Assembly (NCBI GenBank): GCA_038065315.1
Contig: JBBTRF010000001.1
Span: 464,458-528,457, forward strand
Length of the DNA stretch: 64,000 nt
Direction of reading: 5' to 3'
Source of the DNA: Patescibacteria group bacterium
Lineage (GTDB): Bacteria; Patescibacteriota; Minisyncoccia; Phycocordibacterales; JBBTRF01
In this document: one piece after another, positions 5,229 to 25,190 of the stretch
Layout: every line of letters begins with the position of its first letter
How positions within the stretch are numbered: position 1 is the stretch's first letter
The notes under the pieces: generated by a model
Database searches by the model: none
The model's input: only the letters and a program-made list of their open reading frames with translations
What the model was told of the DNA's origin: nothing
Program-made: the position numbers and the translations under genes

Positions 5229-5339
5229 CAACCCGCCGCCCCGCTCCCTTCGGGCACGCGTCAAAACTCTGCTGAGTTTTGCACTCACTCTCAGGCCGTC
5301 GCCTTCCGAGAGACCCTCAGGGAGCGAGGCGGCGGGTTG
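5229..5339. repeat. Nested-hairpin intergenic repeat, copy A (20-bp outer inverted repeat with 1 mismatch; internal hairpin caaaactc-tgct-gagttttg; GC block ctctcaggccgtcgccttccgagag)
   Basis: Outer arms are caacccgccgccccgctccc (5229-5248) and gggagcgaggcggcgggttg (5320-5339). The core is homologous to copies at 11909, 16773, 25249 and 39297. Confidence 0.7.
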
Positions 5340-5445
5340 TTCATTGTGCAACAATTAGTGTCGTTTTACCGAGAGCGGAATGAAATTGTTATGAAGATTT
5401 TGCTTGTAAGTAGCCGTACTGGTTATATATAGTTACGGGTGCTAG

Positions 5446-5940
5446 ATGATGAAGAAACCCGCAAATAACTATGCTTTTATAGATAGCCAGAATCTGAATT
5501 TGGGTGTACTTGGTCTTGGTTGGAGGCTTGATTTTTCGCGCTTTCGAGTCTATCTGAAAGATAAGTATGATGTGTCTAGTGCCTTTATTTTTATAGGATA
5601 CGTACCCGGGAATGAGAGGTTGTACTCTTACCTCCAAAAATCTGGCTATATTTGTATTTTTAAACCCACCCTGGAATTACCTGATGGGGCAGTGAAAGGC
5701 AATGTCGACGCCGAACTCGTACTGAACACCATGATTGAGCTTCCAAATTTCGACAAAGCAGTGGTCGTTTCTGGGGACGGTGACTTCTACTGCCTGGCAC
5801 GACACCTTATTTCGAATAGAAAATGTGAAGCGATCATTGTACCGAACAAATACAAATACTCTGCTCTCTTGAGATTCAAAGACATTAAGCCCTACCTCCG
5901 TTTCATAAACGACCTGCAAAACAAGCTTGAGAAAAAATAA
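5446..5940 (+). CDS. NYN-domain (LabA/PIN-like) ribonuclease family protein
   Basis: 164 aa; NYN hallmarks include the N-terminal AFIDSQNL motif, acidic residues (D..E) and the SGDGDF motif. Transcribed divergently from rpsS. Confidence 0.8.
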   Translation: MMKKPANNYAFIDSQNLNLGVLGLGWRLDFSRFRVYLKDKYDVSSAFIFIGYVPGNERLYSYLQKSGYICIFKPTLELPDGAVKGNVDAELVLNTMIELPNFDKAVVVSGDGDFYCLARHLISNRKCEAIIVPNKYKYSALLRFKDIKPYLRFINDLQNKLEKK

Positions 5941-6039
5941 AAGAAAAGGCCCCGCAAGGACGGAACCTTGAAGGGTGATCTTTTCCATTCGTGATATTGA
6001 TAATTCTATCAAACTCAAGAAAGGAGTCAAGGCGATGAA

Positions 6040-6166
6040 GTAGCCCAAGTATCTACCCCCAGAGAGACCCCTATTCCGACTTTCGCCAGAGATACTCTCA
6101 TCGTTTCCCTTTCGAGAAACCGCAGTGGACGGGGATTTTCTGACCTTTAGAAGTAGATACTTGGGC
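6040..6166. other. 16-bp perfect inverted repeat (tagcccaagtatctac / gtagatacttgggcta) flanking a 94-nt spacer
   Basis: Read directly from the sequence between the NYN gene and the DinJ-like gene. Confidence 0.6.
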
Positions 6167-6232
6167 TATTTCAATTCGCTTTTCTATACCTAAGGCATAT
6201 ACCAAAAGTAGCCGAGCGGTCAAGTGTCGCGA

Positions 6233-6502
6233 TTAGGAAAGTAGGTGTTTTGTTAATTCCTCAGCATTCTTGTACCGCTTCCCATGCTTCTCCGCCCATT
6301 CGGTCTCCTTGATCATTCGCGCTTCCTGGCCAGGAGTAAAACCATTAACAGTCCTGATCTCAAAAGGAATCGACTTGGTGCGAGATACCGTACGAAGAAA
6401 CAACTTCATCGCGGAAGACATGTCCAAACCAAGCTCGGCAAGCACCTTTTGAGCGCTTACTTTGGTCGCCTTATCGATACGAAGTTGAATAGTGGTGTTC
6501 AT
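6233..6502 (-). CDS. DinJ/RelB-family antitoxin-like protein (orphan; no RelE/YafQ partner adjacent)
   Basis: 89 aa starting at the second Met, MNTTIQLRIDKATKVSAQKVLAELGLDMSSAMKLFLRTV...IPFEI, a DinJ ribbon-helix-helix pattern. Paralogous to the DinJ gene at 24890. Confidence 0.75.
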   Translation of the reverse strand: MNTTIQLRIDKATKVSAQKVLAELGLDMSSAMKLFLRTVSRTKSIPFEIRTVNGFTPGQEARMIKETEWAEKHGKRYKNAEELTKHLLS

Positions 6503-6540
6503 CACTCTAGTATAGACAATGTCACTACTTTGTCAATACG

Positions 6541-7461
6541 TTAGATATTCTTTGAAAAAAGGATCTTTGAGTCGAAATCTGCTATCTCATTTACTGCCTT
6601 CGATGTAGACCGGACAAACTCCGTCTCATCTTTTCTCGAATGTCCTTCCATCTTCCAGCGTAGGGAGACAAGAAGTCTGATTAGCACGAGGGTCTGGATA
6701 TCACGCATGGCCCCGGCCAACTCACTTTCGCCATACTCATATCCCTTAAGAAAAATGGCGATGTTCTCTTTGCCGGTATTCCAAGTAAATAGATCCGTAA
6801 GTTCCCCATGAGGCGCCCGGTGCCCACAAGAAGTTCCCCAATCCACAAGATAAATGGCTCCTGAAGGATGCACAACAACATTACTCAAATGAAGATTGCC
6901 ATGACACAATGTTGGGGCATATTGCCAAGAGCGGACTTCATTCACCCTCTTTTTAATACTCAAGAGTTTCTCACTGGAAAACACGCCTGCACTTTGGAAA
7001 AAGTTGTCTCCAAAAAGCTTGTCGTCAACATAATCAAGATCAAACTTGCAATCCGGTGCTGGGATGGCATTGAATTTCTTGGCATACTGACCTAAAGTAA
7101 GCCAAATTCTCCCTGCCTCCTTTGGCAAATCCCTACCATCAACACCCTCAATGAATTCTTGGAACGAGAATGAGTGCCCTACCTCCTCCCCTATCGCAAT
7201 ACACTTCGGGGTCGGAATATTTATCTTGGAAACCTCATCCATGCACCACTTCTCTCTTTGGTAGGTTTTGAGGGCCTTTCCACCTTTCTGCATCCGCAAG
7301 ATATAATCCACACCATTTACAGTAACCTTGCAGACAAGATTCACCACCCCCTTACCCCTAATCTCCTCGATCGATGAGGGTAGCACCCCGAAGACCTTCT
7401 TGGTAATTTGATCAACGACTTCTTTCATATATTTCTCTTTTATTTGCACTAATCGTATCAC
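6541..7461 (-). CDS. Aminoglycoside/choline-kinase-like phosphotransferase (APH family) with a non-canonical catalytic motif HGN instead of HGD
   Basis: 306 aa. It has an N-lobe Lys motif, the Brenner-type loop CHGNLHLSNVVV and the metal-binding motif VDWGTS, giving the APH/kinase-like fold. The catalytic Asp is replaced by Asn. Confidence 0.75.
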   Translation of the reverse strand: MIRLVQIKEKYMKEVVDQITKKVFGVLPSSIEEIRGKGVVNLVCKVTVNGVDYILRMQKGGKALKTYQREKWCMDEVSKINIPTPKCIAIGEEVGHSFSFQEFIEGVDGRDLPKEAGRIWLTLGQYAKKFNAIPAPDCKFDLDYVDDKLFGDNFFQSAGVFSSEKLLSIKKRVNEVRSWQYAPTLCHGNLHLSNVVVHPSGAIYLVDWGTSCGHRAPHGELTDLFTWNTGKENIAIFLKGYEYGESELAGAMRDIQTLVLIRLLVSLRWKMEGHSRKDETEFVRSTSKAVNEIADFDSKILFSKNI

Positions 7462-7484
7462 AAAGTGTTAACGCCAGGGCTGTG

Positions 7485-7528
7485 TAGCCAAAAGAAAAAT
7501 CCCCTCTCGGGGATTTTTCTTTTGGCTA
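7485..7528. terminator. Perfect 20-bp palindromic hairpin (tagccaaaagaaaaatcccc tctc ggggatttttcttttggcta), a bidirectional intrinsic terminator immediately after the rplB stop
   Basis: The stem contains A/T runs on both sides and ends 1 nt before the rplB stop codon at 7529. Confidence 0.7.
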
Positions 7529-8377
7529 CTAAGCCTCCTTCTTCTTCCCAACCTTTCGTCGAGAGACGATAAACTGATTTGAGTATCGCTTTGGAGTTCG
7601 AGTCTTCTGACCCTTACCTGAAGGCTTACCCCACATGGTCTTCGCTCGGCGGAGACCTCGGCCCTGCTTACCTTCTCCTCCTCCGTATGGGTGGTCTACT
7701 GGGTTCATCACCATACCTCGGACAGTCGGTCGAATACCCATCCATCGAGATCGTCCTGCCTTGCCAATGTTCACGAGCCAATTTTCATCATTTGAAACAG
7801 TACCGATAGAACCCCAAGCGGTGTCGAGCACCTTTCGTACTTCGGTAGAAGGCATCTTGAGGTGAGTCATGCCAGCATCCTGTGCGATCACCTGGATAAA
7901 GTTGCCGGCTGATCGTCCGAGCTGTGCGACGCCACTTGGCTGGATAGACACGCTGTGCACAAAGGCGCCAACAGGAATGTTCTTCAAAAGAGTTCGGTTG
8001 CCAGTCTTGAGCTCCGCCTTTTCTGAGACAATAATGCTGTCCCCCACCTTGAGATCCTTTGGAGAAAGGATGTAGCGCTTCTCGCCATCCTTGTAACACA
8101 CGAGCGCAATGAAACCGGTGCGGTTTGGATCGTACTCAATGGTCTGCACTACAGCAGGAATATCTTTCTTATCGAAAACAAAGTCAACGTGTCGATAGAG
8201 TCGCTTGTGTCCACCGCCCTTATGTCGCACAGTGATGCGGCCGTCGGAGTTGCGCCCGACTCGATGCTTGAAACCAGAGACGAGCGCCTTATGAGGAGTG
8301 TCAGTGGTCAAGTGCTCGCTGTATGACACAGTGGTCATACCTCGGCGAGATTTGGTGAATGGTTTATAGTGTTTCAT
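7529..8377 (-). CDS. rplB: 50S ribosomal protein L2
   Basis: 282 aa beginning MKHYKPFTKSRRGMT, with the ...GGGHKRLYR... L2 signature. Confidence 0.95.
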   Translation of the reverse strand: MKHYKPFTKSRRGMTTVSYSEHLTTDTPHKALVSGFKHRVGRNSDGRITVRHKGGGHKRLYRHVDFVFDKKDIPAVVQTIEYDPNRTGFIALVCYKDGEKRYILSPKDLKVGDSIIVSEKAELKTGNRTLLKNIPVGAFVHSVSIQPSGVAQLGRSAGNFIQVIAQDAGMTHLKMPSTEVRKVLDTAWGSIGTVSNDENWLVNIGKAGRSRWMGIRPTVRGMVMNPVDHPYGGGEGKQGRGLRRAKTMWGKPSGKGQKTRTPKRYSNQFIVSRRKVGKKKEA

Positions 8378-11908: not shown

Positions 11909-12022
11909 CAACCTTGGCGCACTGGCCGCCTCAGACACGCCGTAAATTTCTCCTGAAATTTCGGCTCCTCTCGGCGCCGTCGCGCCTGCGAGAGGTCTTC
12001 GTCAGCCAGTGCGCCAAGGTTG
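11909..12022. repeat. Nested-hairpin intergenic repeat, copy D (18-bp perfect outer inverted repeat caaccttggcgcactggc / gccagtgcgccaaggttg)
   Basis: Core: acgccgt + aaatttc-tcct-gaaattt + cggctcc + tctcggcgccgtcgcgcctgcgagag. Lies between the Phd-ParE toxin-antitoxin pair and tuf. Confidence 0.75.
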
Positions 12023-12056
12023 GTTTGATAGACATTTGTTGCTAGACCCGATTGTC

Positions 12057-12296
12057 TTAGAGGTGGTAGGTGGTGTCGTCGCGATTGGTGACATCGAGTA
12101 GAAAGATGTCGTCGTTGGTGAGGTGAAAGAGTATTCTGTATTGACCGGAACGCACTCTATAGATATCAAGGCCTCCTTTGAGCTTTTTCAGGTCGAGACC
12201 AACGAAGTTGCGCGATTTGATTTGAGCAATGATCAGCAGGATCCGTCCTCTTTGCTTTTCTTCCAGCTTGGCGAGGAATTTATCAATTTTGTGCAT
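12057..12296 (-). CDS. ParE/RelE-family type II toxin
   Basis: 79 aa with a RelE/ParE pattern (...YRVRSGQYRILFHLTNDDIFLLDVTNRDD.Y). Overlaps the upstream antitoxin gene by 14 nt. Confidence 0.8.
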   Translation of the reverse strand: MHKIDKFLAKLEEKQRGRILLIIAQIKSRNFVGLDLKKLKGGLDIYRVRSGQYRILFHLTNDDIFLLDVTNRDDTTYHL

Positions 12297-12531
12297 CGAG
12301 ACGCTTCAGGGAGGCAAGCACTTCATCGATATGCACCCCCTTTGGATCAATTTGAGTAAAATCCACCAATGTCTTCCACACCCCTTCGTCTCCCCACTCG
12401 TCGACGGGCACCATTTTGAATGCCGGTTTCGACTTTTTCACCACGACGAAAGACCGCCCTTTTTCTACTTCAGAAATATATTTTTCCATGTTCTCTCGCA
12501 GCTCTTTTAGGCCGATAATATTGGTTTTCAT
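12283..12531 (-). CDS. Phd/YefM-family type II antitoxin
   Basis: 82 aa beginning MKTNIIGLKELRENMEKYISEVEKGRSFVVVKKSKPAFKMVPV, a YefM/Phd fold pattern. Confidence 0.8.
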   Translation of the reverse strand: MKTNIIGLKELRENMEKYISEVEKGRSFVVVKKSKPAFKMVPVDEWGDEGVWKTLVDFTQIDPKGVHIDEVLASLKRLDAQN

Positions 12532-12534
12532 AGC

Positions 12535-12562
12535 ACAAGTTTATCTTAAGATAAACTTGTGT
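12535..12562. promoter_or_regulatory. 12-bp perfect palindrome (cacaagtttatc tta gataaacttgtg) 3 nt upstream of the Phd start codon; candidate toxin-antitoxin autoregulatory operator
   Basis: Read directly. Type II toxin-antitoxin promoters are classically repressed through palindromic operators. Confidence 0.5.
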
Positions 12563-12610
12563 CAACCAAGCCTGCCGTCGACAAAACAGACAAAGAAAGC
12601 ATATCAGAGT

Positions 12611-12665
12611 GGCGATAAAGAAACTGCTAAGAAATGTTCAAGAAAAAGCTAATTTTTGATAAAGA
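12611..12665. repeat. Bipartite A-rich repeat, copy 1: AGAAACTGCTAAGAAA-N18-TTTTTGATAAAGA
   Basis: The same two blocks with the same 18-nt spacing recur at 32986-33045. Confidence 0.55.
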
Positions 12666-12687
12666 TTCAACAAAGAAAGTCTAGGGG

Positions 12688-13431
12688 CTACTCCGCTGCA
12701 ACACCGCCCAAAAACACTTTGCTGAGCGTATCGCCCTTGATAATCTCGGCAGCAGGACCGGCAGCCACTACCCTACCCTTGTCGAGTACATAGGCACGAT
12801 GAGCAACTTCGAGAAGAGATTTGATATTGTGCTCCACCACCACGACAGCCATCTTGCGGCGCTGGTTGATCTCGAGGATCTTGGCGAACATTTCCTTCAC
12901 GATCTTCGGAGCAAGACCGAGCGACGGCTCATCGAGCAGGAGGATCTTTGGGTCGGTCATGAGGCCGCGGGCGATCGCGAGCATTTGCTGTTGGCCGCCG
13001 GAGAGATTGGAGGATTTTTCCGAGAGTCGGCTACGTAGTGCCGGGAACAGATCAAGCACCTGCTCGAGACGCTCGGCACGAATCTTTGCAGAAGCGACGG
13101 TCCAGCCGCCGAGTTCGATATTCTCACGGACGCTCAGATGTTTAAACACGCGGCGGCCTTGAGGGACAAATGAAATCCCTCGATGGATCACCTCATGCGA
13201 CACCGGCAAGAAGGTCTGCCCTTCCCAAGAGACCGATCCAGAGCTGATCGGCGCCAAGCCGAAGATCGCCTTGAGTACCGTTGACTTGCCGGCACCGTTT
13301 GGACCCATGAGCGCCACGATCTCGCCTTCATCTATAGACACCGAGGCACCATCAAGAGCCTTCACGCCACCGTAATGGACGTGTAGGTCGCGGGTTTCGA
13401 GAAGGATCTCTCTTTTTACATTATCGGCCAT
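12688..13431 (-). CDS. livF: Branched-chain amino acid ABC transporter ATP-binding protein LivF-like
   Basis: Walker A GPNGAGKST, the ABC signature LSGGQQQ and the Walker B motif LLLDEP. Start set at MADNVK. Confidence 0.85.
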   Translation of the reverse strand: MADNVKREILLETRDLHVHYGGVKALDGASVSIDEGEIVALMGPNGAGKSTVLKAIFGLAPISSGSVSWEGQTFLPVSHEVIHRGISFVPQGRRVFKHLSVRENIELGGWTVASAKIRAERLEQVLDLFPALRSRLSEKSSNLSGGQQQMLAIARGLMTDPKILLLDEPSLGLAPKIVKEMFAKILEINQRRKMAVVVVEHNIKSLLEVAHRAYVLDKGRVVAAGPAAEIIKGDTLSKVFLGGVAAE

Positions 13432-13488
13432 TACGCCTTCAATTCTATCATCGCGGGAGGATGAGGGCGAGCTACTAAACACCGAGCG

Positions 13489-14397
13489 TTAATTCACAGC
13501 CACAGGTTGACCATTCTTGACTTGCTTCAAGATCATTTCCCGCTTCGCCACACCGTTCTCATCAAAGAGACCGGATTTTGAGAGGCTGGATTGGACACAG
13601 ATAGTATCTGCTTTACATTCATCCACTGCTGAAGAGAGAATCTCTGCTGCTTGCTCAGAAAGACCGAACACGGCTCCTTCTCCCTCAGCAATATCTTTCG
13701 GGAAAGAATAAAAAACGTCCGGAACCAAAGTACGGACAACGGGAAGCTCAGCTACGTAAGTAGAGAAGACGGGTGCGACGACACCAAACTGCCTGAGCTT
13801 CGCGACCCCGCCAGCAAAGAAGAATGAAATATCTGGTGAGTAGATCACATCGGGCCTCGAAGCCTTGATCTTCGCCACTTCAGTGGAAATGTCGCCAGTA
13901 TCAGCACCAATCGCAACATGATAGACGATGTCACCCTTAAAATGAGCTCGGAAACTATCGACGTGCGTCTTCGAGAAGGCATTTTGATAGGAGACGAGAG
14001 CAACCCGCTTGTAGCCGCGACGGGTAAGCTCTTCCGCAATGAACTTTGATTCGTCTTCCAGAGAATACTGCACGTTGTAGAGGTTACCCCCGCTCGCTTC
14101 ATAGAGCGTCTTCGAAGCCGCCGATGGTACGAGCGCGAAGTAGTCACCCGCAAACTTCGACAACACTGCACCAATAAGGAAGCTCGCCGCCGCCGTGACC
14201 AGCGCCCCGACGAGCAGTGACAGGAAGAAATTCATCCCCGTGGTCGTGAGCAGGATGCCTGTCGCATAGGCACCGAGGCCGTAGAAGGCCGCGTGTGTCA
14301 CCGAGAGTAGGCCGGTATACCCCACCACCAAGTTGAGCGACAAACCCAAGATCCCGTAGATGCCGATGAGAATGAGGAGGTGAATGAGGTAGTCCAT
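13489..14397 (-). CDS. Chimeric ORF joining a LivM-like permease N-terminus (3 TM helices, through GDYFALV) to the C-terminal two-thirds of a LivK-like periplasmic binding protein
   Basis: N-terminal ~95 aa match the LivM family (MDYLIHLLILIGIYGILGLSLNLVVGYTGLLS...LSKFAGDYFALV). The remainder matches type-I periplasmic binding proteins (...YKRVALVSYQNAF...IKASRPDVIY...FDENG...). No livG gene is present. Confidence 0.6.
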   Translation of the reverse strand: MDYLIHLLILIGIYGILGLSLNLVVGYTGLLSVTHAAFYGLGAYATGILLTTTGMNFFLSLLVGALVTAAASFLIGAVLSKFAGDYFALVPSAASKTLYEASGGNLYNVQYSLEDESKFIAEELTRRGYKRVALVSYQNAFSKTHVDSFRAHFKGDIVYHVAIGADTGDISTEVAKIKASRPDVIYSPDISFFFAGGVAKLRQFGVVAPVFSTYVAELPVVRTLVPDVFYSFPKDIAEGEGAVFGLSEQAAEILSSAVDECKADTICVQSSLSKSGLFDENGVAKREMILKQVKNGQPVAVN

Positions 14398-14628
14398 GAT
14401 ATGCAGGCGCTTGTGCGCCTTTAATCATACCAAAAAAGGCGCTTGACTCATATTTTCGATTTTGCTAACATACTAACTGTGGTACCTCAGGGGCTTCCGG
14501 AAACGGGAGCCCCTTGAAGCTTCTAGTTGGGAAGATAATGTAGAGGCATAAAAAGACCCACCCGCCATTGCTGGCGGGTGGTAACATCTAACACTCTAAG
14601 TATCGCAAAACTGAATTGAAGTGTCAAT

Positions 14629-15496
14629 TTACTTCTTCAAAATCCCCTGCGGCCGGAAGAGCAGGAACAGGATAAGCACAGTGAAGGCAATCGCATCCTT
14701 CCACTCGCCGGAGATGTGCCAAATACCGAAGTTTTCGACAAAGCCGAGGAAAAAAGCGCCGAGTACGCCGCCGTAGATGTTGCCGATGCCGCCGATGATA
14801 CAGGCGATCACGCCTTTGAGGAGTAGCGACATGCCCATGGTCGGCTCAATGCCCGTATCGAAGCCGATGAGAATGCCGGCGAGGCCAGCGATCGCCGAAC
14901 CGATGAGAAACACCTTGCCGATGACTTTGTCAGTGTTGATGCCGACAATCTTGGAAACATCTTCATCGTCGCCCACAGCTCGTACCGCGCGGCCGAACAT
15001 TGTCTTTTTTGAGCACCAGCGCCAATCCGCTCATGATGACCAGTCCCGTCACGAGGATGACGAGCTGGATCTCCGTAATCACTCCCCCGAAGATGTCATA
15101 CACCCGCTGCGCTGAGGAGTTTTGCGAGAGCGTCTGGAATTGGCTGGTGAAGAGGATGGCGATAATGGCCTGCACTGCAGTGAAAGCCCCGAGCGAAGCC
15201 ACCATGAGCACCATGCTGGAGGATTTGCGAGCACGGAGGGGACGATAAACAAAGTGATTGATGAGTCCGCCCACCGCCGCCGCAATGACCACGCCAAGCA
15301 GCACCGCCAGCCACAGATCGAGGCCAAGCATTTTGTAGAAATAGAACACCGCGTAGCCGCCCACCGCAGTGAGCGCACCATAGCCGAGATCGAAGAACTT
15401 CACCGTCCCGAAGATGATATTGAATCCGAGCGCCAGCAGCGAATAGATCGCGCCGGCAATGATGCTGTTCAGGATGAGTTGTGGGAGGATGTCCAT
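14629..15496 (-). pseudogene. livH: livH-like permease disrupted by a frameshift near 14963-15000 at an A6/T6 run
   Basis: Two adjacent ORFs, 14963..15496 and 14629..15000, encode the N- and C-halves of LivH in different frames. The junction is ...VLKK/D... versus ...MFGRAVRAV... at the homopolymer ttttttga. Confidence 0.65.
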
Positions 15497-15511
15497 GTCT
15501 CAATAGTATAG

Positions 15512-15545
15512 CAAAAAACCGCTCGGAGGGAGCGGTTTTTTGCTC
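15512..15545. terminator. Hairpin aaaaaaccgctc-ggaggg-agcggtttttt, a bidirectional intrinsic terminator
   Basis: GC stem flanked by A and T runs, between the liv fragments. Confidence 0.55.
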
Positions 15546-15557
15546 ATTGAGGAAAAA

Positions 15558-16082
15558 TTACTTCGCGTCAACAAGTGCACCATCCTTGACCTGCATCATT
15601 CGCATACCGATACCGGTAACGTCACCATTCTCATCGAATCCAAAAGTTCCAGTAATCCCTGGAAAATCTTTAGTAGCATAGAGAGCCTGCTTGATCTTTT
15701 CAGTATCACTAGCCCCTACTTTTTCAAAGATGGTCGCTAGGAGATAGACCTCGTCATAAGCGTTTGCAGAAAAGAACGGATAGGTTGGTTCAGAGCTGTA
15801 ACGCTTCTTACTTTCCTGCAAGAAAGCGTTGGCTCGGGAGTTTTCAGAGCCAAGTGCCGGAGCATCCACAATATACGCACCTTCCACAGCCATGCCTGTC
15901 TTCACAAACTCAGGACCTGAGAAATATGCTGTGTAGAACTGAGACTTGATACCGAGTGTTCGAGCCTGTTCAGCCAGACGAGCACCGTCTGAACCAGTCT
16001 GGGTATCGATCAGGATCGCCTCATGGCGCGAGAAGCTCGGTATCATCATCGAGAGCCACGAGATCGCCGATGCCATGCGCAA
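15558..16082 (-). pseudogene. Truncated LivK-like substrate-binding protein (C-terminal ~150 aa only)
   Basis: ...ARLAEQARTLGIKSQFYTAYFSGPEF...TGTFGFDENGDVTG... matches the C-terminus of branched-chain amino-acid binding proteins. The N-terminal two-thirds and the signal peptide are absent. Confidence 0.6.
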
Positions 16083-16234
16083 AATCTACGAACTCGCCTG
16101 GGCCGAAGCAAAACGGCTTGACGCCGACCTACGCCTGAAACCATAGCCCTCATTGACACCCATCTCTTAAAAGAATAGGCTTTAAGGCGGATTTGAATCT
16201 GCACTGTTTTGAATCCAGAAAGGAGGCCGAAACT

Positions 16235-16636
16235 ATGTATCTGAATATTCGAGGAATCGAGAACGATCTCTACCCCGAGATTCCCTACTACCGCTTTGTT
16301 TGGGGGCCAGTGATAGAAAAAATGTTGGACTTCAAAGACGAAAAAACTCCCTTCCGCCTCAGAATGGCCAGCACTCACTATCGCGGTGCTTCGGAAAATA
16401 TCCCAGACGACACAGATATAAAGGTGCTTGTCTTTGCGGTTCGAGTTCTGATTGGCACTCCTGACCACTTCTGCTTCGGAGCCCACGTCATCAGCGGCTG
16501 GCCACCATACGAAGGCCGTGTGATTGAGGGCGGCATCATGGACGACGGAAGTGGACTGTTTGTCCTGACTACTCCAGATATCTACCTTCTCGCCGGCTTC
16601 GACCGGACCATAAATAGAGCCGTTTACACGGCCTGA
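16235..16636 (+). CDS. Hypothetical protein (133 aa), no recognisable domain
   Basis: GGAGG Shine-Dalgarno sequence 7 nt upstream of the ATG at 16235; followed by a hairpin plus T-run terminator. Convergent with the liv remnants and fusA. Confidence 0.5.
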   Translation: MYLNIRGIENDLYPEIPYYRFVWGPVIEKMLDFKDEKTPFRLRMASTHYRGASENIPDDTDIKVLVFAVRVLIGTPDHFCFGAHVISGWPPYEGRVIEGGIMDDGSGLFVLTTPDIYLLAGFDRTINRAVYTA

Positions 16637-16653
16637 TACATGGAGTTTTATCG

Positions 16654-16690
16654 CCCCGCAGCTCAGCCGCGGGGTTTTCTTTTGCAGTTT
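16654..16690 (+). terminator. Intrinsic terminator (ccccgcag...cgcgggg followed by ttttctttt)
   Basis: GC hairpin followed by a T-tract immediately after the 16235..16636 ORF. Confidence 0.6.
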
Positions 16691-16772
16691 CGTAATTCAG
16701 GAAAGGCAAAACCGCCTGTTGGCGAAGACCTCGCGCAACTGCAACGGCTCGATATTGACCGAGATATGTAAA

Positions 16773-16884
16773 GAAAACAAAAACACCTTCGGTGAAGACC
16801 TCTCGCAGCCACGTCGGTGGCGAGAGGAGCCAAAATCCTAGCAAGGATTTATGGCGTGTCTTCGACGAAGGTGTTTTTGTTTTC
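16773..16884. repeat. Nested-hairpin intergenic repeat, copy E (27-bp outer stem with 1 mismatch; opposite orientation to A and D); ends 2 nt before the fusA stop codon
   Basis: Arms gaaaacaaaaacaccttcggtgaagac and gtcttcgacgaaggtgtttttgttttc. The reverse complement of the core aligns with copy D (gacacgccat + aaaatcc-ttgcta-ggatttt + ggctcctctcgc...gcgagag). Confidence 0.75.
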
Positions 16885-16885
16885 T

Positions 16886-19030
16886 CTACTTCCTCGCTTC
16901 AATAATCTGCTGCTCCACAAACTTCGGCACCGGCGCGTAATGGTCGAATTCCATCGTCGCTGAACCCTGTCCTGAAGTCATAGATCGGAGCTGAGTAGTG
17001 TAACCGAACATTTCGGACAACGGCACCTTTGCGTGCATTACCTTGGCCTGACCGCGCTCGGTCATTTCTTCGATCGTACCTCGCTTTGAAGAAATGCTGC
17101 CGGTGATATCACCCATAAACTTCTCTGGGAACAATACCTCCACCTTCATGATTGGTTCCAAAATAACCGGCTTCGCACGCTTTGAGGCGCTCTGGAAGGC
17201 CAATGAACCGGCGATCTTGTACGCGATTTCAGATGAGTCGACATCGTGGTAGCTACCGAACGTCAATTCACAAGACACGTTCACCATGCGGTATCCGGCG
17301 ATAACACCTCGGTCCATCGCTTCGTGCACACCCTTCTCCACTGCAGGGATGAATTCGCCAGGGATCGCACCGCCCTTGATAGAGTTAATGAATTCGAAGT
17401 CGGCAAATCGGCTGACATTCTTCTTCACCTTCTCGCCTTCTTCCAACGGCTTCATCGGTCGGAGAGTGATGATAACGTGACCGTACTGACCCTTTCCTCC
17501 GGTCTGCTTGATGTACTTCTCTTCCGCCTCTGCCTCGCCCTGAATCGTCTCTCGATATGCCACCTGAGGCTTGCCGACGTTGGCCTCGACACCGAATTCT
17601 CGCTTCATACGATCCACCATGATTTCCAAGTGAAGTTCACCCATACCTGAGATGATCGTCTCGCCTGTTTCAGAGTTGGAACTGATCTTGAAAGTCGGAT
17701 CTTCATTTGCGAGCTTCTTCAAAGCCACGCCCATCTTTTCCTGGTCGGCCTTGGTCTTTGGCTCGACGCGCAACGACACCACTGGCTCCATGAACTTGAT
17801 CGCTTCGAGGATAACTGGATTTTCTTCGTCACAAAAGGTGTGCGAAGTAAGGGCGTCTTTGAGACCCACCGCAGCGGCAATCTCTCCGGCGTACACTTTC
17901 TTCACTTCCTCGCGCTCGTTGGCCTGGAGGCGCACGATACGACCCAATCGCTCGCGCTTGCCGGTGGTTGAGTTATACAAATACGTACCAGACTCCACAG
18001 TACCCGAGTACACGCGGAAGAAAGTCAGTTGCCCAACAAAAGGATCGTTCTGGAGTTTGAAGGCCAAGGCACAGAAAGGTTCCTCATCTGAAGGCTTGCG
18101 GAAGATGTGGTCACCCGTGTTTGGATCAATGCCTCGTACCGGGGGAAGGTCAAGGGGAGATGGAAGATAATCAACGACGGCGTCCAATACGAGCTGCACA
18201 CCCACATTCTTGAGCGCAGAACCAGTAAACACTGGGAAGATCTTTCCAGCAAGCACCGCCTTTCGGACCACTCGCTTGATCTCATCGATCGAGATCTCCT
18301 TCCCTTCCAAATATGCCGACATGGTCGCCTCATCGTATTCTGCCACTCGGTCAATGAGTTCAGCTCGATACTTCTTTGCATCTTCGAGCATGTCTGCAGG
18401 AATCTCCTGTTCAATAATCTTAATACCCTTCTCACCTTCGAAGGTGTAGGCCTTCATCTTCACGAGGTCGACAACACCACGATGATCACCCTCCAAGCCA
18501 ATAGGCAGCTGGAATCGGATCGCATTTTTGTTCAATCGCTCGAGAATAGAGGCATATGAGCGCTCAAAAGACGCGCCGGTTCGGTCCATTTTGTTGATGA
18601 AGCAAAGTCGAGGAACATTGCTTTCGTCGGCATAGCGCCAGTTGGTCTCAGACTGTGGCTCTACTCCCGCCACGCCGTCGAATACCACCACAGCACCGTC
18701 GAGTACTCTGAGAGAACGCTTCACTTCTACGGTAAAGTCGATGTGCCCTGGAGTGTCAATGATGTTGAAACGCACCTTCTTTGAAACATCCTCCTTTGGC
18801 ATGTAGGTAGGGTTCCAGAAACAGGTGATCGCCGCGGCGGTAATAGTAATACCTCGCTCTCGCTCCTGCTCCATCCAGTCGGTAGTGGTCTCGCCCTCGT
18901 GCACCTCGCCGATCTTGTGGATCATACCTGTGTAGTACAGGATTCGCTCTGATGTGGTGGTTTTTCCCGCATCAATGTGCGCGATAATGCCGAAATTACG
19001 TACTTTTTCGAGTGGATAGTCTCTGTTCAT
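16886..19030 (-). CDS. fusA: Elongation factor G
   Basis: 714 aa with AHIDAGKTT, DTPGHIDF and the EF-G domains IV and V; full length. Confidence 0.97.
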   Translation of the reverse strand: MNRDYPLEKVRNFGIIAHIDAGKTTTSERILYYTGMIHKIGEVHEGETTTDWMEQERERGITITAAAITCFWNPTYMPKEDVSKKVRFNIIDTPGHIDFTVEVKRSLRVLDGAVVVFDGVAGVEPQSETNWRYADESNVPRLCFINKMDRTGASFERSYASILERLNKNAIRFQLPIGLEGDHRGVVDLVKMKAYTFEGEKGIKIIEQEIPADMLEDAKKYRAELIDRVAEYDEATMSAYLEGKEISIDEIKRVVRKAVLAGKIFPVFTGSALKNVGVQLVLDAVVDYLPSPLDLPPVRGIDPNTGDHIFRKPSDEEPFCALAFKLQNDPFVGQLTFFRVYSGTVESGTYLYNSTTGKRERLGRIVRLQANEREEVKKVYAGEIAAAVGLKDALTSHTFCDEENPVILEAIKFMEPVVSLRVEPKTKADQEKMGVALKKLANEDPTFKISSNSETGETIISGMGELHLEIMVDRMKREFGVEANVGKPQVAYRETIQGEAEAEEKYIKQTGGKGQYGHVIITLRPMKPLEEGEKVKKNVSRFADFEFINSIKGGAIPGEFIPAVEKGVHEAMDRGVIAGYRMVNVSCELTFGSYHDVDSSEIAYKIAGSLAFQSASKRAKPVILEPIMKVEVLFPEKFMGDITGSISSKRGTIEEMTERGQAKVMHAKVPLSEMFGYTTQLRSMTSGQGSATMEFDHYAPVPKFVEQQIIEARK

Positions 19031-19102
19031 ATATGTTTAGTGATAGGCGTTAGACTACAGGAAAAGGGCGAAAAATGCAACGCTATCGGGCGATTGGGGC
19101 CC

Positions 19103-19915
19103 TTATTTCCCCATAGTATAAAGGCGCTTAACCTCGGCTGAGGAGAGAGTGCGATTATAGATCCGGACCTCATCAATTTCACCCAAGTAGTCATTGTTAC
19201 AAACACTGTCACCGATGCGCAATGGCGCCGCATTGACGAGATCGAGGATATCCACACCTGATGCACTATTGTCGAACACGCCATCAACATAGGCGCTGAG
19301 CGTTACACCATCCCGGACAGCCACTCCATGATGCCACTCCCCGTCATTTACGACGGCATTACTTGCTACGCAGGTCAAATTACCTAGAGCATCATCTATG
19401 CAGGCCGAAAATGTACCGGCTGCAATATCGACCTCCCAGAAACTATCATTGAGGCAGACATCGCGAACAGAAACAAGACGCACGCCGCCACCAGCAAAGG
19501 TCGTTTTGAACCAAACTGAGACTGAAAATGGACCTGTGCCGAAATCGTAGGAAGAAACATTCTCTCCTTCTAAATAATCAATTGCGCCGTCTTCAAAGTT
19601 GAGACCTTGTCCGATCCTTCCAGGCACTAGTGCGGTAGTGGTCGGCATATCGATCATAAAGAGATTATTACCAATACCACTGCGATCGTACACCGTCCCG
19701 CCAATCATGTCCGGGCCATTGAAAGACCAGTATCCCGTCAATCCACCTCTAAGGGTCGCGTCAGGGGTAGTATTCACTTTCAATCGGGTCAGGGAAGCCA
19801 TCACCTTCGATGTCCACGAATTAGAAAGGAACGTCCAGCTAGCCTCTACCGTAATCGGCAGAAACCAGCAAGAGAGACTGAGAAGAAGGACGCTGATCGC
19901 GGAGTGGTACTTCAT
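19103..19915 (-). CDS. Secreted LamG-like (concanavalin A-like lectin/glucanase) domain protein
   Basis: Signal peptide followed by a LamG pattern (GYWSFNG...DRSG.GNN...FSVSVWFK...WHHGVAVRDG...LSAYVDGV...IDEVRIYNRTLSSAEVKRLY). Confidence 0.75.
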   Translation of the reverse strand: MKYHSAISVLLLSLSCWFLPITVEASWTFLSNSWTSKVMASLTRLKVNTTPDATLRGGLTGYWSFNGPDMIGGTVYDRSGIGNNLFMIDMPTTTALVPGRIGQGLNFEDGAIDYLEGENVSSYDFGTGPFSVSVWFKTTFAGGGVRLVSVRDVCLNDSFWEVDIAAGTFSACIDDALGNLTCVASNAVVNDGEWHHGVAVRDGVTLSAYVDGVFDNSASGVDILDLVNAAPLRIGDSVCNNDYLGEIDEVRIYNRTLSSAEVKRLYTMGK

Positions 19916-19917
19916 AG

Positions 19918-21720
19918 CTATTGTTGTGGATCAGAAGGGCTGAAAGGATTCGCGACGATTACCGTGCGCGTCGAGGTTGCGGCATTGCCAGATAGATCAG
20001 TCGCTACGTAGGTAATGATGTAGTTTCCGACGGCGGCGGTGTCGATTTGATCACCCGAAACAACAACGGAGAGATTGTTGTCCCGATTGTCGGCCACGAG
20101 TGCACCAAGATCGGAATACACTGCACCGACCAGAAGGTTGGCTGGATTGTTTCCTTGGATGGTGATTGTCGGGGGCTCAATATCGGGTGCCAAGACCAGC
20201 GCAGGAGCGTCAACTACAGCAGGAGAGGTCGAGGAGATACTCGTACCGCCATAGCTTCGGAGAAGTGCCTTGAGCTGCTCTTTCTCTATGCACACATCAT
20301 CGACACATAGACGCTGGCTGACACGAAGTGTATCGGAAGTTGGGACAGAGACGGAAGATAGGGTGTTGTTTCGGATCGAATTGATCTGCGCTTGCTGCTC
20401 TTGGATTGCCCTTACGAGAACTGGGGTTAATTCTTCATACCGAACACCTCGAGGGGTAATGCCGTCAATTTCAGTAAATATCAGTCTTGAATCGACGCGT
20501 GCCACCTCTTCCGCAATGAAACCGAAGCGGGACTCATTGTTGCTATTTGAATTAAACGTGATCGGCCGCAGCTGGCCGATGAGAGTAAGAGCTGGACCAT
20601 CAAACGTCTCTATGTTGTGTTTGAAGCGAGCAGAAGAAACAGTGCAATTGGTGGCACCCGTGTTCACTAAAATTTCCTTTGTCGACGCATTAATACAGAC
20701 CGCGTCCGAAGTCGCACTTGCTAGAGTCAAGCCATCTACGGCCATCGACCCCACCACTGAAAGTGTCTTCCAAGGAGAAGTGCTGGCAACGCCCACTCTT
20801 CGGCTCCAGGACGGCACCGCGCCGGCGCCATCTGACTCTGCATACACGGTGAAAAGCGAGTTGCCGTCGATCCTAGCCGAGTAACTCTCGACCGTGCTGG
20901 AAGCGGCAGTGGCAGTGATGGGCATATCGATCCAGGCAACAATCCCGGCGTTGGTATCAAAGGTCATTGGACCAACCTGAAGATCGTCCACCGAGGTGAC
21001 GCCGCTCGAAAAATCATACTGAAAGGATCCGCCGCCAACAGAGAGACCTCCCGATAACGTGGAAGTAGCGGTAGTTGAAGTGGCGCTTAAATTGCGGAAA
21101 ACTCCCTCGCCTATCACAGAGAGCTTCGCGTAGGGAGAGGTGGTGCCAATGCCAATATTTCCCGCCTGACTCACAAACAGACTCGAAGTCGCCGTCAGCG
21201 TCGTCCCCGAGCCGTTGTAGAAAGGAAACTGACCTTGGGTGCCTGAATTCACCGTCCCAGACCCACCGCTTCCGGAAATACAAGTACCTCCCACAGCGAA
21301 GCAACCGGCAGCCAGATTAATGCCGCCAGTTCCGTAAAAAGTCGTGGTAGCAGTAGTAAAATTAGCCAAGCTCCCGATGGAAAGAATGCTCCCAGGCGTG
21401 GTGGTACCGATACCGACGTATCCACCGGAATTAACAATGAAATCGGTCTGCGTGGAAGATCCAATCGCAAAAGATGGCCCGCTGATGCCACTCGGATTGA
21501 TAGAAAACAAACCCCACGGCGAGGTGGTAGAGACACCGAAATTCCCAGACGCAGTTGAAGCATTCACCTGGAGCACAATACAACTAGCATTAGTCGGCGC
21601 ACAGCCTGGATCCAGTGTTTCGCCCGGCGCAAATGAGGCGGAAACGCTCGATGGGAGGGCGAAAAAAGAAACAGATGCACTGAAACAAACAAACGCGCTT
21701 GTGAAAAGAAAGCGTCTCAT
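19918..21720 (-). CDS. Secreted Gly/Thr/Ser-rich fibre-like protein with an internal peptidase-S74 intramolecular-chaperone domain followed by a C-terminal DUF5011-type Ig-like domain
   Basis: Signal peptide and (G.IGIGTT.P...L.V.G)-type repeats. The S74 motif is ...ARFKHNIETFDGPALTLIGQLRPITFNSN...GFIAEEVARVDSRLIFTEIDGITPRGVRYEELTPVLVRAIQEQQAQIN, and the C-terminal ~130 aa match DUF5011 (...VVSGDQIDTAAVGNYIITYVATDLSGNAATSTRTVIV). Confidence 0.7.
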   Translation of the reverse strand: MRRFLFTSAFVCFSASVSFFALPSSVSASFAPGETLDPGCAPTNASCIVLQVNASTASGNFGVSTTSPWGLFSINPSGISGPSFAIGSSTQTDFIVNSGGYVGIGTTTPGSILSIGSLANFTTATTTFYGTGGINLAAGCFAVGGTCISGSGGSGTVNSGTQGQFPFYNGSGTTLTATSSLFVSQAGNIGIGTTSPYAKLSVIGEGVFRNLSATSTTATSTLSGGLSVGGGSFQYDFSSGVTSVDDLQVGPMTFDTNAGIVAWIDMPITATAASSTVESYSARIDGNSLFTVYAESDGAGAVPSWSRRVGVASTSPWKTLSVVGSMAVDGLTLASATSDAVCINASTKEILVNTGATNCTVSSARFKHNIETFDGPALTLIGQLRPITFNSNSNNESRFGFIAEEVARVDSRLIFTEIDGITPRGVRYEELTPVLVRAIQEQQAQINSIRNNTLSSVSVPTSDTLRVSQRLCVDDVCIEKEQLKALLRSYGGTSISSTSPAVVDAPALVLAPDIEPPTITIQGNNPANLLVGAVYSDLGALVADNRDNNLSVVVSGDQIDTAAVGNYIITYVATDLSGNAATSTRTVIVANPFSPSDPQQ

Positions 21721-21732
21721 GGATGCGGTTAA

Positions 21733-23679
21733 TTATAGCACGACCTTTTCTTCGATCACGCCGTTTTTTGCCAAAAATACGGGCGATGTGTGGACAAGAG
21801 TATATGTCTCGTCGGGATTTTTCTTCTCCACCGTGAGGTAGTACTCGCCCGGCGGCACCAAGGCATAGAAATGGCCGAGACGGTCTGTCACTTTGTGTAG
21901 TAACTCTTGGTTTGGGCCGGCAATATATACGCGGATGATCGCAAAGGCAATTGGCAAATCCGTGGAGCTATCCATCACGCTGGCAAATGCCTTTTTCTTG
22001 GCACCAAAGATTCTCAAGAGGAGTAGGCAAACATAGAGAGCGAAGATGGCGATGTTGTATGGAGCCGGTGCTGCCCAGAATGCAAGGACGGCCACGAAAA
22101 AGCCGACGGAGAAGGAAGCGTCGGTGATGCGCTTTTTGATGAGGTCGCGCTTCGAGTAAAAACGCGAAATCTGCTGTTGTGATTTAGCAAATTCATTCCA
22201 ATCGAAATTCACGGGGTCCAGCGGGATGTTTTTGATGAGTACTCCGCCCGCTTCCAAGGCAGTGATCGGTTCACCGAAATAAAGGTCTGAGTAGAGCTCA
22301 TCCGCCATCTTTCCGGCCAATTTCTTCGAGGGAAATGTGTAGTTGGTCTTGTTGGCGACCATGGTGTATGTGCCGGACGCGAGCAAGAAGCCATAGCGGC
22401 CATCGAGGTCGGTAATCGACGTATTGACCTCGTTCCCCTTCTCATCTTGCAAGACCACGTACGCGGGGTCGAGCGGCTGCTTGGTAACGCTGTCATACAC
22501 AGTACCCCACGGACGAGAACGTTTTTTCAGGCCAAAAGCCCCGAGCAAGATTCCCCACAATCGGAGTGGGATGAGAAACAGCTCGGAAAATGACAGCGGG
22601 TTCAAGAAAAGCGATGAAACGCTGGCCGCACCCGCGCCGACCACGCCCGCCGTCGACACCGTCTTGGTCACCACCGAGCCAGTTGGACTCTGGATCACTT
22701 CTTTTGTCTCCTCCGCCACAACCTTTACCGTCTCTTGGGCGAATTCATAGCTTTGCTTTACCTGCTCGACAGCACCGGAGACGATTTGCGTGACCGCACC
22801 TCCTCCGCCGCCACCGCCACTCGAACCGGAGCCTGAACCTGAAGAGCCGCTACTACCGCTATCACCACCAAAAAAGTTGGCGATGCTCGAAAAGACACTA
22901 TCGACAGTCGCGGCCACGGACTCGACGGCCGACTCAACCACCGATGGAGTTTCTGCCTCGGCCGGAGGGGCTTCAGATGGAGTATCTTCTGGTGGCGCCA
23001 CATCGGGAGCTGGCGCCGGAGACTCTGCCGGAGCTTCAGATGGTGCCGGTGAGGACTCCGCCGCTGGCGCAGACGACTCTGAAGAAGAGCTACTAGATTC
23101 TCCGCTACTGCTCGAGCTTGAACTCGAACCTGATCCGGAACCACCACCCCCTCCGCCGCCACCACCACCGCCGCCACCTGAAGAAGCACCGCGAACGCTC
23201 GCAGGGCGCCAATCTGTGGCCACATTAAATGAACCCGAGCCGCAGGTGCTGTTTGTGCTGCAATTAAACACGATCCAGCCAGTGTTTTGACCCCAAGCGT
23301 AGCCGGAAAAGACTCCCGAAGAGCTGATCACGACTCGAACACCGCTGGCGGATGGATGGAAATTAATCCAGCCAGTGTTTTGGCCCCAAGCGTAGCCGGA
23401 AAGATTGCCGCTACCGTCATTTACCACCCCGTAGCCAGTCGGATTAAGGTTGATCCAGCCATAGTAGTCGCTCCACACGTAGCCGGTCATCGCGCTGTCG
23501 GTGACGTGCACATCTCCTTCCGTCGTGCCGAAATTGAACGTACCGAAATTGGTATCAACGGCCTTGGCATAGAAATTTCCTGGCTCAATGATGCCGTTGG
23601 TGTCTGAGGCGTGCACAGAAATCGAGCCAGACGAAAGGATAGACAGCACAACCAAAAGAAAGAGGGCGACTCTTGTCAT
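21733..23679 (-). CDS. Secreted/membrane-anchored repeat protein: three GYAWGQNTGWINF-type repeats, a Gly13/Ser-rich low-complexity linker, two TM helices each followed by a carboxypeptidase-regulatory-like beta-sandwich
   Basis: Repeats GYVWSDYYGWINLNP, GYAWGQNTGWINFHP and GYAWGQNTGWIVFNC; a (GGN)13 codon run at 23137-23176; two hydrophobic helices; CarboxypepD_reg-like segments (...GTVYDSVTKQPLDPAYVVLQDEKGNEV...DLDGRYGF...). Confidence 0.65.
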   Translation of the reverse strand: MTRVALFLLVVLSILSSGSISVHASDTNGIIEPGNFYAKAVDTNFGTFNFGTTEGDVHVTDSAMTGYVWSDYYGWINLNPTGYGVVNDGSGNLSGYAWGQNTGWINFHPSASGVRVVISSSGVFSGYAWGQNTGWIVFNCSTNSTCGSGSFNVATDWRPASVRGASSGGGGGGGGGGGGGSGSGSSSSSSSSGESSSSSSESSAPAAESSPAPSEAPAESPAPAPDVAPPEDTPSEAPPAEAETPSVVESAVESVAATVDSVFSSIANFFGGDSGSSGSSGSGSGSSGGGGGGGAVTQIVSGAVEQVKQSYEFAQETVKVVAEETKEVIQSPTGSVVTKTVSTAGVVGAGAASVSSLFLNPLSFSELFLIPLRLWGILLGAFGLKKRSRPWGTVYDSVTKQPLDPAYVVLQDEKGNEVNTSITDLDGRYGFLLASGTYTMVANKTNYTFPSKKLAGKMADELYSDLYFGEPITALEAGGVLIKNIPLDPVNFDWNEFAKSQQQISRFYSKRDLIKKRITDASFSVGFFVAVLAFWAAPAPYNIAIFALYVCLLLLRIFGAKKKAFASVMDSSTDLPIAFAIIRVYIAGPNQELLHKVTDRLGHFYALVPPGEYYLTVEKKNPDETYTLVHTSPVFLAKNGVIEEKVVL

Positions 23680-23741
23680 ACTTCCCTATTCTACCGCGCT
23701 ACTGCAAAATGCGGAACGGATATCTCGCTAGCAGCAAAAAA

Positions 23742-24272
23742 CTAGAACCCACTGAACATTGCCATCATCATCCACATAAACAAAATGACGCAGAGGATGA
23801 TCACCCCTGGAGAAAGTCGGCCGCCGCGCTTCAAAAGTGGGCTGTTCTCACGCTCGAGGCAAGTGAGTACGATTACAAATGAAGAGAATGCGATGACCGC
23901 GAGAGAGCTGAGTGATTTATAGAGAATTGCTTTATCGGTAATAATCTCCCAAATGCTACAGACCCCGAGAAATGCGAGAAGAACGGCCGAAACGATGAGA
24001 GCGCCGAGAGTGGCAATGCGCACAATCCTGAAGGTCGGATTTGGCACCGCGGGAACAGGAGGGTTCAGAGGATCTACCGCCTCTCCGCCGCCAACAAAAC
24101 GCCCGGCCACCATCACTACCACTGCAACAACGGCCAAAATACCGAGGGTCGCAAATGATTTCGAAATAACCTCTTTGTTAAAAACGTCCCAAACCCCAAG
24201 AATAGAAATGAGGGACAGGACACTCACGGCTCCAATAAAGATTCCCGAAGCGATATTTTGAATGGTTTTCAT
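23742..24272 (-). CDS. Small integral membrane protein with an internal tandem duplication (2 x 2 TM)
   Basis: The two halves align (IASGIFIGAVSVLSLISILGVWDVFNKEVISKSF... versus IATLGALIVSAVLLAFLGVCSIWEIITDKAILYKSL...). Start set at MKTIQN. Confidence 0.55.
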   Translation of the reverse strand: MKTIQNIASGIFIGAVSVLSLISILGVWDVFNKEVISKSFATLGILAVVAVVVMVAGRFVGGGEAVDPLNPPVPAVPNPTFRIVRIATLGALIVSAVLLAFLGVCSIWEIITDKAILYKSLSSLAVIAFSSFVIVLTCLERENSPLLKRGGRLSPGVIILCVILFMWMMMAMFSGF

Positions 24273-24874: not shown

Positions 24875-24889
24875 TTCGAAAGAACAGAA

Positions 24890-25162: not shown

Positions 25163-25176
25163 ATACCAAAGTATAT

Positions 25177-25190
25177 ACCTAGGTATAGTA
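25177..25190. promoter_or_regulatory. 14-bp perfect palindrome tatacctaggtata upstream of the DinJ-YafQ operon; candidate operator
   Basis: Read directly; lies 15 nt upstream of the antitoxin start. Confidence 0.45.

Follow-up and report, generated by a model that had tools for sequence, protein, structure and literature searches.

An apparently undescribed family of palindromic repeats with a conserved branched core and locus-specific arms at gene ends in Patescibacteria

What kind of element repeats a small branched hairpin between the genes of a bacterium and gives every copy a different outer stem? The question comes from a 64,000-nucleotide (nt) stretch of a Patescibacteria genome (contig JBBTRF010000001.1 of assembly GCA_038065315.1, positions 464,458 to 528,457 of the forward strand), called the window here, in which an earlier reading of the letters alone, the original prediction, had picked out five intergenic elements that each enclose a conserved core within a long inverted repeat. 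All five were found at the places given there, with outer inverted repeats that do differ between copies: the arms are 12-35 nt long, 80-100% complementary and have no sequence in common. Covariance model R1, searched over both window strands with filters off, matched exactly these five copies (E 3.7e-10 to 7.6e-18), and the next match had an E-value of 4.4. The copies are as follows:

Copy A, 5229 to 5339, plus strand: palindrome 5229-5254 / 5314-5339, core at about 5252-5316, model match 5240-5328 (46.5 bits, E 3.7e-10).
Copy D, 11909 to 12022, plus strand: model match 11921-12010 (73.9 bits).
Copy E, 16768 to 16889, minus strand: model match 16784-16873 (75.1 bits).
Copy B, 25249 to 25328, minus strand: model match 25245-25331 (73.5 bits).
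Copy C, 39289 to 39398, minus strand: model match 39300-39386 (60.2 bits).

These five hairpins are true members of an apparently undescribed repeat family. A strict pattern equivalent to ~19.5 fixed bases matches four of the five window copies, with 0.00 matches expected in shuffles, and a scan of 185,579 species at one genome per species returned 78 stretches, 76 of which lie in the genomes of ~30 Patescibacteria species, often several per genome. The carriers are labelled Parcubacteria, Paceibacterota, Minisyncoccia, Vogelbacteria or similar, ultra-small bacteria that include some groundwater and lake groups. The two pattern matches in Sulfurimonas were rejected by the covariance model as chance, and a viral origin was set aside on finding only two pattern matches in IMG/VR, both chance and without the hairpin. 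The covariance-model search that the original prediction had called for found 96 copies in 619 kb, with E-values down to 1e-22, showing that a multi-copy structured family extends beyond the window. Its density is five copies in 64 kb here and ~20 in the sampled part of genome JBCLGW, and no copy occurs in 78 pilC loci of distant relatives (~50% PilC identity, 256 kb) picked regardless of the element.

The family also stands apart from those already catalogued, as the original prediction had supposed. A search of the whole window against Rfam 15 at the gathering threshold returned four tRNAs only, an Rfam search in E-value mode with copy A and the long variants described below gave no match overlapping any element, and our literature searches found no published description. 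Hammerhead and other small ribozymes and the retron non-coding RNA were considered and rejected, as their conserved cores are absent, no reverse transcriptase gene is adjacent and Rfam gives no match. A sixth, degenerate copy proposed at 24590-24635 did not hold up: it has no covariance-model match even at E≤10, and its likeness to copy B is confined to CAAAATTTC and TATGCGTACCC, a 9-mer and an 11-mer.

The conserved part of the element is a core of 56-60 nt together with a short closing stem, and as a single strand it folds into a three-way junction formed by the closing stem and two hairpins, H1 and H2. In order, the consensus consists of the closing stem (4-7 base pairs, bp), C-ACGC, a 3-4-bp helix, a bulged T, H1, GCTCC, H2 and the return of the closing stem. 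H1 is a 7-bp A/T-rich stem (AAA plus four variable pairs) with the loop TGCT or TGGT, extended by 3-4 bp beyond the bulged T, and H2 is a G+C-rich hairpin with a CTCG...CGAG base in most subfamilies. All window copies fold alike into an outer stem, a short closing stem and two hairpins, with folding z-scores of -7 to -11 for four copies and -2.9 for the short copy B. The unpaired bases (ACGC, the bulged T, the TGCT loop, GCTCC and CTCG) are conserved across distant genomes. In rare long variants (L007 1207-1470, L020 2330-2543, L049 2796-2945, L056 7815-7920), a conserved non-coding module of 100-180 nt turns H2 into a rod; it has no open reading frame (ORF) and no Rfam match, and it contains ATCAAGAAAAYAATC, GGCGAACTC, a covarying hairpin, TCAAACAGYGCC and TTGTTTTCTAA.

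Compensatory change in the stems, first suspected from five copies, is strong when tested on 96. Standard pairs fill 93% of the paired cells of the 96-copy alignment, compared to 70% in shuffles and at most 63% when the partners are slid, and two-sided changes number 449 against 126 in shuffles, with 18 of 19 pairs changed on both sides. In H1, 98% of the cells are paired, and every variable position shows three or four types of pair. The H1 stems of the window copies read as originally given, except that the string for copy E was one base off and the stem is AAATCCT/AGGATTT.

The original prediction had allowed for either RNA or a DNA cruciform as the folded form; the kinds of pair point to pairing that is kept at the DNA level rather than by selection on one RNA strand. 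When a structure is under selection on one RNA strand, G.U pairs should be tolerated and A.C mismatches should not. In the core helices, G.T wobbles (37) show no excess over A.C mismatches (31) in any helix, and in the arms, where 95% of the 1563 pairs are Watson-Crick, the counts are 15 and 27; H1 is almost wholly Watson-Crick, with 3 G.T and 6 A.C cells. Since G.T is no commoner than A.C, complementarity is taken to be kept on both DNA strands. A generic structured non-coding RNA would tolerate G.U on its functional strand only, whereas the element combines strong covariation with symmetric wobble counts. The reverse strand, which has the better folding energy in 59 of 72 copies, was considered as the acting strand and rejected, as the wobble counts show no real strand bias; its energy advantage probably stems from constant loop terms.

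Comparison of copies within one genome separates the core from its arms. Genome JBCLGW carries ~20 copies with one core, mostly an identical 55-nt sequence, and unrelated arms of 17-55 bp, the longest pair of which is perfect (55/55 bp), while the dominant core variant differs from genome to genome. The arms match those of orthologs and a few segmental or paralogous duplicates and otherwise nothing, so that captured foreign or distant genomic sequence was rejected as their source. A special mechanism to diversify the arms was likewise rejected, as the genomes are ~80-85% identical in coding DNA and unconstrained sequence is expected to be randomised. The elements are dispersed rather than arrayed, with some opposite-orientation pairs ~40-55 nt apart (L040 3351-3556, L055 4369-4601, L065 4672-4881, L075 2426-2649), and genes flanked by two elements are ordinary ones encoding a TruB-like protein or secreted proteins. 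No constant flanking tetranucleotide was seen among the copies. At the inner border, 15 of 95 copies have a TC/TC pair around the closing stem, when ~0.4 are expected for that dinucleotide, and 20 have an identical dinucleotide of any kind there, compared to 5.9 expected; as a sign of duplication, the TC/TC pair is only a hint. The motif GTCAAC...GTTG at copies A and D was considered as attC-like and rejected, because the GTCAAC at their left edges is the -35 box of the minus-strand rpsS and tuf promoters and does not belong to the element.

Orthologous sites show that cores come and go, flip and are exchanged. Among six genomes ~78-83% identical in DNA, the pilC-tpiA spacer holds a forward core in the window, L086 and L087, a reversed core in ELA631 (L085) and no element in L084 and L088. 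The arms of the window and L086 copies are homologous and three two-sided substitutions apart. The right arm in ELA631 has its homolog in the single-copy sequence past the stop codon of the empty L084, and an inverted copy of that sequence forms the left arm. At the 3' end of fusA, four genomes of one 90% EF-G cluster have homologous arms around two different core subfamilies; the 3' half of an older core lies ~45 nt farther downstream, and ELA631 keeps an orphan older 3' arm. At the 3' end of rplB, the window has a coreless hairpin with 27-bp arms, and its counterpart in L069 (4952-5039) carries a core at the tip. Two features of the window belong to these last loci:

Relic, 16712 to 16745, minus strand: an older core reduced to its 3' half (GCGCGAGGTCTTCGCC), ~45 nt downstream of copy E, spotted by eye and below the model threshold; clearer in the relative L092 (TCGCGCCTGCGCGAGGTCTTCG).
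Coreless hairpin, 7478 to 7535, no strand assigned: terminator-like, overlapping the rplB stop codon, with 27-nt arms and the loop TCTC.

Other orthologous pairs show the same freedom of the parts. Copy A and its L069 ortholog have cores ~95% identical with one compensatory H1 change and unrelated arms, which can be explained by arms without sequence constraint in genomes that are ~85% identical even in ribosomal-protein genes. Orthologs of copy D in ELA631 and CAZRTH (L043) have compensatory changes in every stem. Between L030 and L033 (~91% identical), the arms are the same and the core is inverted, and between L074 and L047 and between L051 and L006 (~91% identical) the H1 stem has been swapped wholesale. 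Empty sites also occur in more distant genomes.

Concerted evolution of the core, unique arms, site turnover, patchy spread and lack of coding capacity together argue for selfish DNA that behaves like repetitive extragenic palindromic (REP) sequences or MITEs (miniature inverted-repeat transposable elements), a likeness that the original prediction had proposed for a family that proves to be multi-copy and interspersed in ~30 Patescibacteria species genomes. Like the REP/BIME sequences of enterobacteria and pseudomonads and the REPINs that RAYT mobilises, the elements are short, non-coding, extragenic, multi-copy and hairpin-forming, occur in either orientation and in adjacent inverted pairs, and are homogeneous within a genome and different between genomes; REP sequences also usually lie just after genes and can stabilise 3' ends or terminate transcription. 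A REP, however, is one imperfect hairpin (~20-40 nt) with a conserved stem and a 5' GTAG, whereas the present element is a 56-60-nt two-hairpin junction on an outer stem unique to its locus. MITEs such as Correia/NEMIS, ERIC, RUP and BOX resemble it in being ~80-160 bp long, non-autonomous and intergenic, in forming a long hairpin if transcribed and in being present or absent among relatives, but they have conserved terminal inverted repeats and a target-site duplication, whereas here the terminal repeats are all different and no duplication is found at the borders. As the behaviour is REP/MITE-like, but defining features (conserved terminal repeats, duplication, a single palindrome) are lacking and no cognate transposase was found in the sequence searched, the family is best described as a variant of the bacterial interspersed palindromic repeats. 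The explanation we favour, which we consider moderately probable, is thus a lineage-restricted, non-coding family of this kind in Parcubacteria/Paceibacteria-type genomes, spreading selfishly in REP/MITE fashion at the tips of gene-terminal hairpins.

Under this explanation, the copied unit would be the asymmetric ~56-60-nt core with its short closing stem, the long outer arms would be local DNA, and cores would be exchanged at hairpin tips, as at the fusA and rplB loci. The arms may be held, and sometimes apparently made, perfectly complementary by copying at the DNA level. Such copying is suggested by the few wobbles, the two-sided changes, the one-flank arms at ELA631 pilC, the orphan arm at fusA and the stop codons inside palindromes. 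It could take the form of intrastrand template switching, or fold-back synthesis, with the closing stem of the core itself as primer, a step that we infer from quasipalindrome correction. Quasipalindrome correction is a mutational process known at isolated sites in Escherichia coli and yeast, and it would explain Watson-Crick arms, few wobbles, two-sided changes and one-flank arms; we know of no description of it as a routine route by which a repeat family acquires its arms. A bolder account, possible though on balance improbable, makes the core a mobile DNA without fixed ends that settles just past a stop codon and, with its closing stem as primer for copy-back synthesis, turns the host flank into a long inverted repeat of its own. 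It would thereby create, replace and flip terminator-like hairpins, driven by a group-specific enzyme or by the replication machinery alone.

Most copies sit where a terminator would. For 64 of the 96 palindromes (67%), an ORF of 100 amino acids or more has its stop within 40 nt of the palindrome end, compared to 35% for random intergenic placement at the same length; the median distance from palindrome to stop is ~20 nt, and several palindromes include the stop codon. The original prediction had held orientation to be unrelated to flanking transcription. Both orientations do occur, but the family is biased: of the copies that adjoin the stop of such a gene on a single side, 42 have their core sense to that gene and 15 antisense. 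On both strands, the arms are rich in A on their 5' side and in T on their 3' side, with 53-77% T in the five positions past the core closing point and 50-69% farther out. With arms of this composition starting near a stop codon, a transcript would form a very stable hairpin and then a U-rich stretch.

The elements thus have the form of an intrinsic terminator, in which a gene is followed by a stable G+C-rich hairpin and then directly by a T run, and their positions and arm composition support the terminator- or insulator-like behaviour that had been proposed for them. A simple terminator scanner did not flag them; it cannot score branched loops. Bidirectional intrinsic (Rho-independent) terminators share the A-tract, stem, loop, stem, T-tract layout, the nearness to stop codons and the G+C-rich apex, but form no sequence family, whereas the elements have a conserved branched apex of 56-60 nt with conserved unpaired bases that evolves in concert within each genome. 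Most likely the element acts as a terminator in both directions or as a hairpin that protects 3' ends, or is tolerated in that role, and the sense orientation is favoured. The sense bias despite frequent flips and the T-rich stretch past H2 suggest, from sequence, a strong terminator or 3'-end hairpin that works better in one orientation.

Terminator-shaped hairpins without a core also occur in the same genomes, with arms of 14-30 nt. In L033 (3843-3910), a perfect coreless palindrome with 30-nt arms and the loop TCCGTACC has a core-bearing element ~40 nt away; it may be a normal terminator, or a core may have been lost from it. In the window, a coreless inverted repeat at 26544-26612 has 26-nt arms and a 17-nt loop and is partly conserved in ELA631 (L026, L050).

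The window copies illustrate these settings, and their neighbours carry the Pfam or database protein names expected from the original reading: rpsS, EF-Tu, EF-G, rpsG, PilC (T2SSF) and the ParE/Phd and YafQ/RelB toxin-antitoxin pairs. Copy E overlaps the fusA stop codon (16886-16888) with its palindrome and has its core sense to fusA, copy B lies 13 nt past the rpsG stop and is sense to rpsG, and copy C, whose palindrome adjoins the pilC stop codon (39399-39401), is sense to pilC. Copy B is followed by an ordinary hairpin of terminator-like shape, made up of an inverted repeat and a T run, and by the RelB/YafQ promoter, and copy C by the tpiA promoter. Copy D follows a ParE-like toxin gene of the minus strand, 35 nt past the stop, has its core antisense to that gene and lies directly upstream of the tuf promoter (-35 box at 11911-11906). 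Copy A is flanked by the promoters of rpsS (minus strand) and of an NYN-domain gene (plus strand), which diverge. The S10 operon (rplB...rpsS; window 5400-7540) and the str operon (rpsG-fusA-tuf; window 12030-25340) are interrupted by accessory genes, namely an APH phosphotransferase, RelB, the NYN-domain gene, two toxin-antitoxin pairs and large surface proteins with Laminin_G_3, Ig-like and CarboxypepD_reg domains, and the window hairpin elements are located at the borders of core and accessory genes.

Several observations weigh against selfish spread or against the route proposed for it. Target-site duplication was not found, as 79 of 94 copies have no direct repeat of at least 3 nt at the palindrome borders and the remainder are at chance level. 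A tblastn search of 708 kb of sampled genomes with Y1 and RAYT queries, which is a weak test, gave no match, and this counts only weakly against a RAYT/IS200 transposase as mobiliser. Unpaired core bases are kept between orthologs with wholly diverged arms, which may reflect locus-by-locus selection instead of selfish spread. A sense bias of 3:1 suggests a role for some property of the RNA, and copy A sits between two divergent promoters where no terminator is needed. The fold-back origin of the arms draws on three locus comparisons between genomes ~80% identical, where deletion of one arm and the core in an "empty" genome looks the same, and the fusA and rplB data fit insertion of a core into a pre-existing hairpin tip equally well.

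Much of this could be read in another way, with the element as a functional RNA module rather than selfish DNA. It would then be a cis-acting structure of the 3' untranslated region (for example one that terminates transcription, is processed by RNase III or binds a protein at its three-way junction) whose conserved unpaired bases are read by a host factor, kept by selection at each locus and spread by occasional duplication only. Copies immediately past stop codons, 42 sense against 15 antisense cores despite frequent inversions, the T-rich stretch past H2 in sense orientation, covariation in all stems, and unpaired bases conserved across distant genomes and between orthologs with randomised arms would all be expected of such a module. 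We nonetheless regard it as unlikely: no helix has an excess of G.U over A.C, which is unusual for one-strand RNA selection, a quarter of the copies run antisense, and neither copy A nor copy D is sense to a 3' end next to it. Concerted core evolution within genomes, the patchy distribution (0 in 78 distant pilC loci), relics and swaps at single loci and the lack of an Rfam family match also speak against it.

Less probable again is that a transposase or recombinase recognises the core as a folded single strand, in the manner of IS200/IS605, REP-RAYT or attC, and that the core inserts into the loops of terminator hairpins that already exist, in which case it may mark the points of entry of accessory genes into conserved operons. 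Group IIC introns at terminators, IS1397/ISKpn1 in REP loops and integron attC sites all involve stem-loops at gene ends in a way that depends on structure and not on stem sequence. Two unlike hairpins, a conserved bulged T and conserved flanking bases, together with the need for pairing at the DNA level, would suit such a site. So would core subfamilies swapped in place with the homologous arms undisturbed, the coreless and core-bearing hairpins at the same rplB position, and the TC/TC pairs around the closing stem (15/95 compared to ~0.4) with TCTC as the coreless rplB loop. The window copies also lie where core genes give way to inserted toxin-antitoxin, NYN, APH and surface-protein genes.

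Other observations speak against such a site. Neither the surroundings of the copies nor the 708 kb yielded a Y1, integrase or other candidate gene, and the copies form no arrays. Integron attC sites have outer R''/R' boxes (RYYYAAC...GTTRRRY), a variable centre, cassette arrays and IntI, the reverse of a dispersed element with a conserved centre and variable arms. IS200/IS605-derived elements have similar hairpins at their left and right ends and a fixed tetra- or pentanucleotide target, whereas the A/T-rich H1 is unlike the G+C-rich H2, and the 708 kb gave no TnpA match. Group IIC introns, IS1397/ISKpn1 and attC are protein-coding or ribozyme elements or have conserved outer boxes, whereas here there is no ORF and no intron signature and the outer part varies. 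At ELA631 pilC, moreover, the empty relatives show no sign of an earlier hairpin. The last alternative, ordinary intrinsic terminators that happen to resemble one another, or an artefact of assembly or chance, would account for the terminator-like position and arm composition, but is already refuted by model E-values down to 1e-22, long unpaired blocks identical across unrelated loci and genomes, a pattern expected 0.00 times by chance and an identical sequence in five independent assemblies.

These five assemblies come from a single population and agree fully in the sequence of copy C. In an independent assembly of that population (L004, Logan contig ERR3858120_107003), a contig end falls inside copy C, and the hairpin elements appear to fragment short-read assemblies. 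The PilC protein adjoining copy C also occurs on Hainich groundwater contigs (well H52, 0.1 µm fraction) and in the Patescibacteria assembly GCA_964355935.1.

Other structures and gene differences were noted around the same operons. Just past the NYN-domain gene, a hairpin at 6036-6173 has 21-nt arms (95% complementary) and a 96-nt centre; a ~200-nt stretch around it is missing in the syntenic L069, its centre has no match in the other sequences sampled, and the hairpin is unique and was rejected as a family member. Upstream of the Phd/ParE pair, a perfect 28-bp palindrome (CACAAGTTTATCTT/AAGATAAACTTGTG) at 12534-12561 overlaps a promoter-like site and is probably the antitoxin operator. A 3.5-kb window segment (12664-16148) that the close relative ELA631 lacks holds an ABC ATPase and fragmented ORFs for a branched-chain amino-acid permease and binding protein, which look like a decaying transporter operon. 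Downstream of fusA, the close relatives L091 (4289-6314) and L092 (3709-5757) carry a reverse transcriptase gene where the window has other genes, and in L092 a bAvd gene adjoins it, as in a diversity-generating retroelement.

For the Patescibacteria (candidate phyla radiation), whose genomes are tiny and streamlined, to our knowledge almost nothing is known of non-coding DNA, transcription termination or small mobile elements. The family described here is an abundant structured repeat in these organisms that turns the classical MITE and REP layout around, with locus-specific arms about a conserved branched centre. If the element terminates or stabilises transcripts, it would mark the 3' ends of genes and aid operon annotation in organisms that cannot be grown alone. 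If its arms truly come from copy-back synthesis, it would offer a natural system for following perfect palindromes in bacterial chromosomes from their origin through growth and inversion to their survival.

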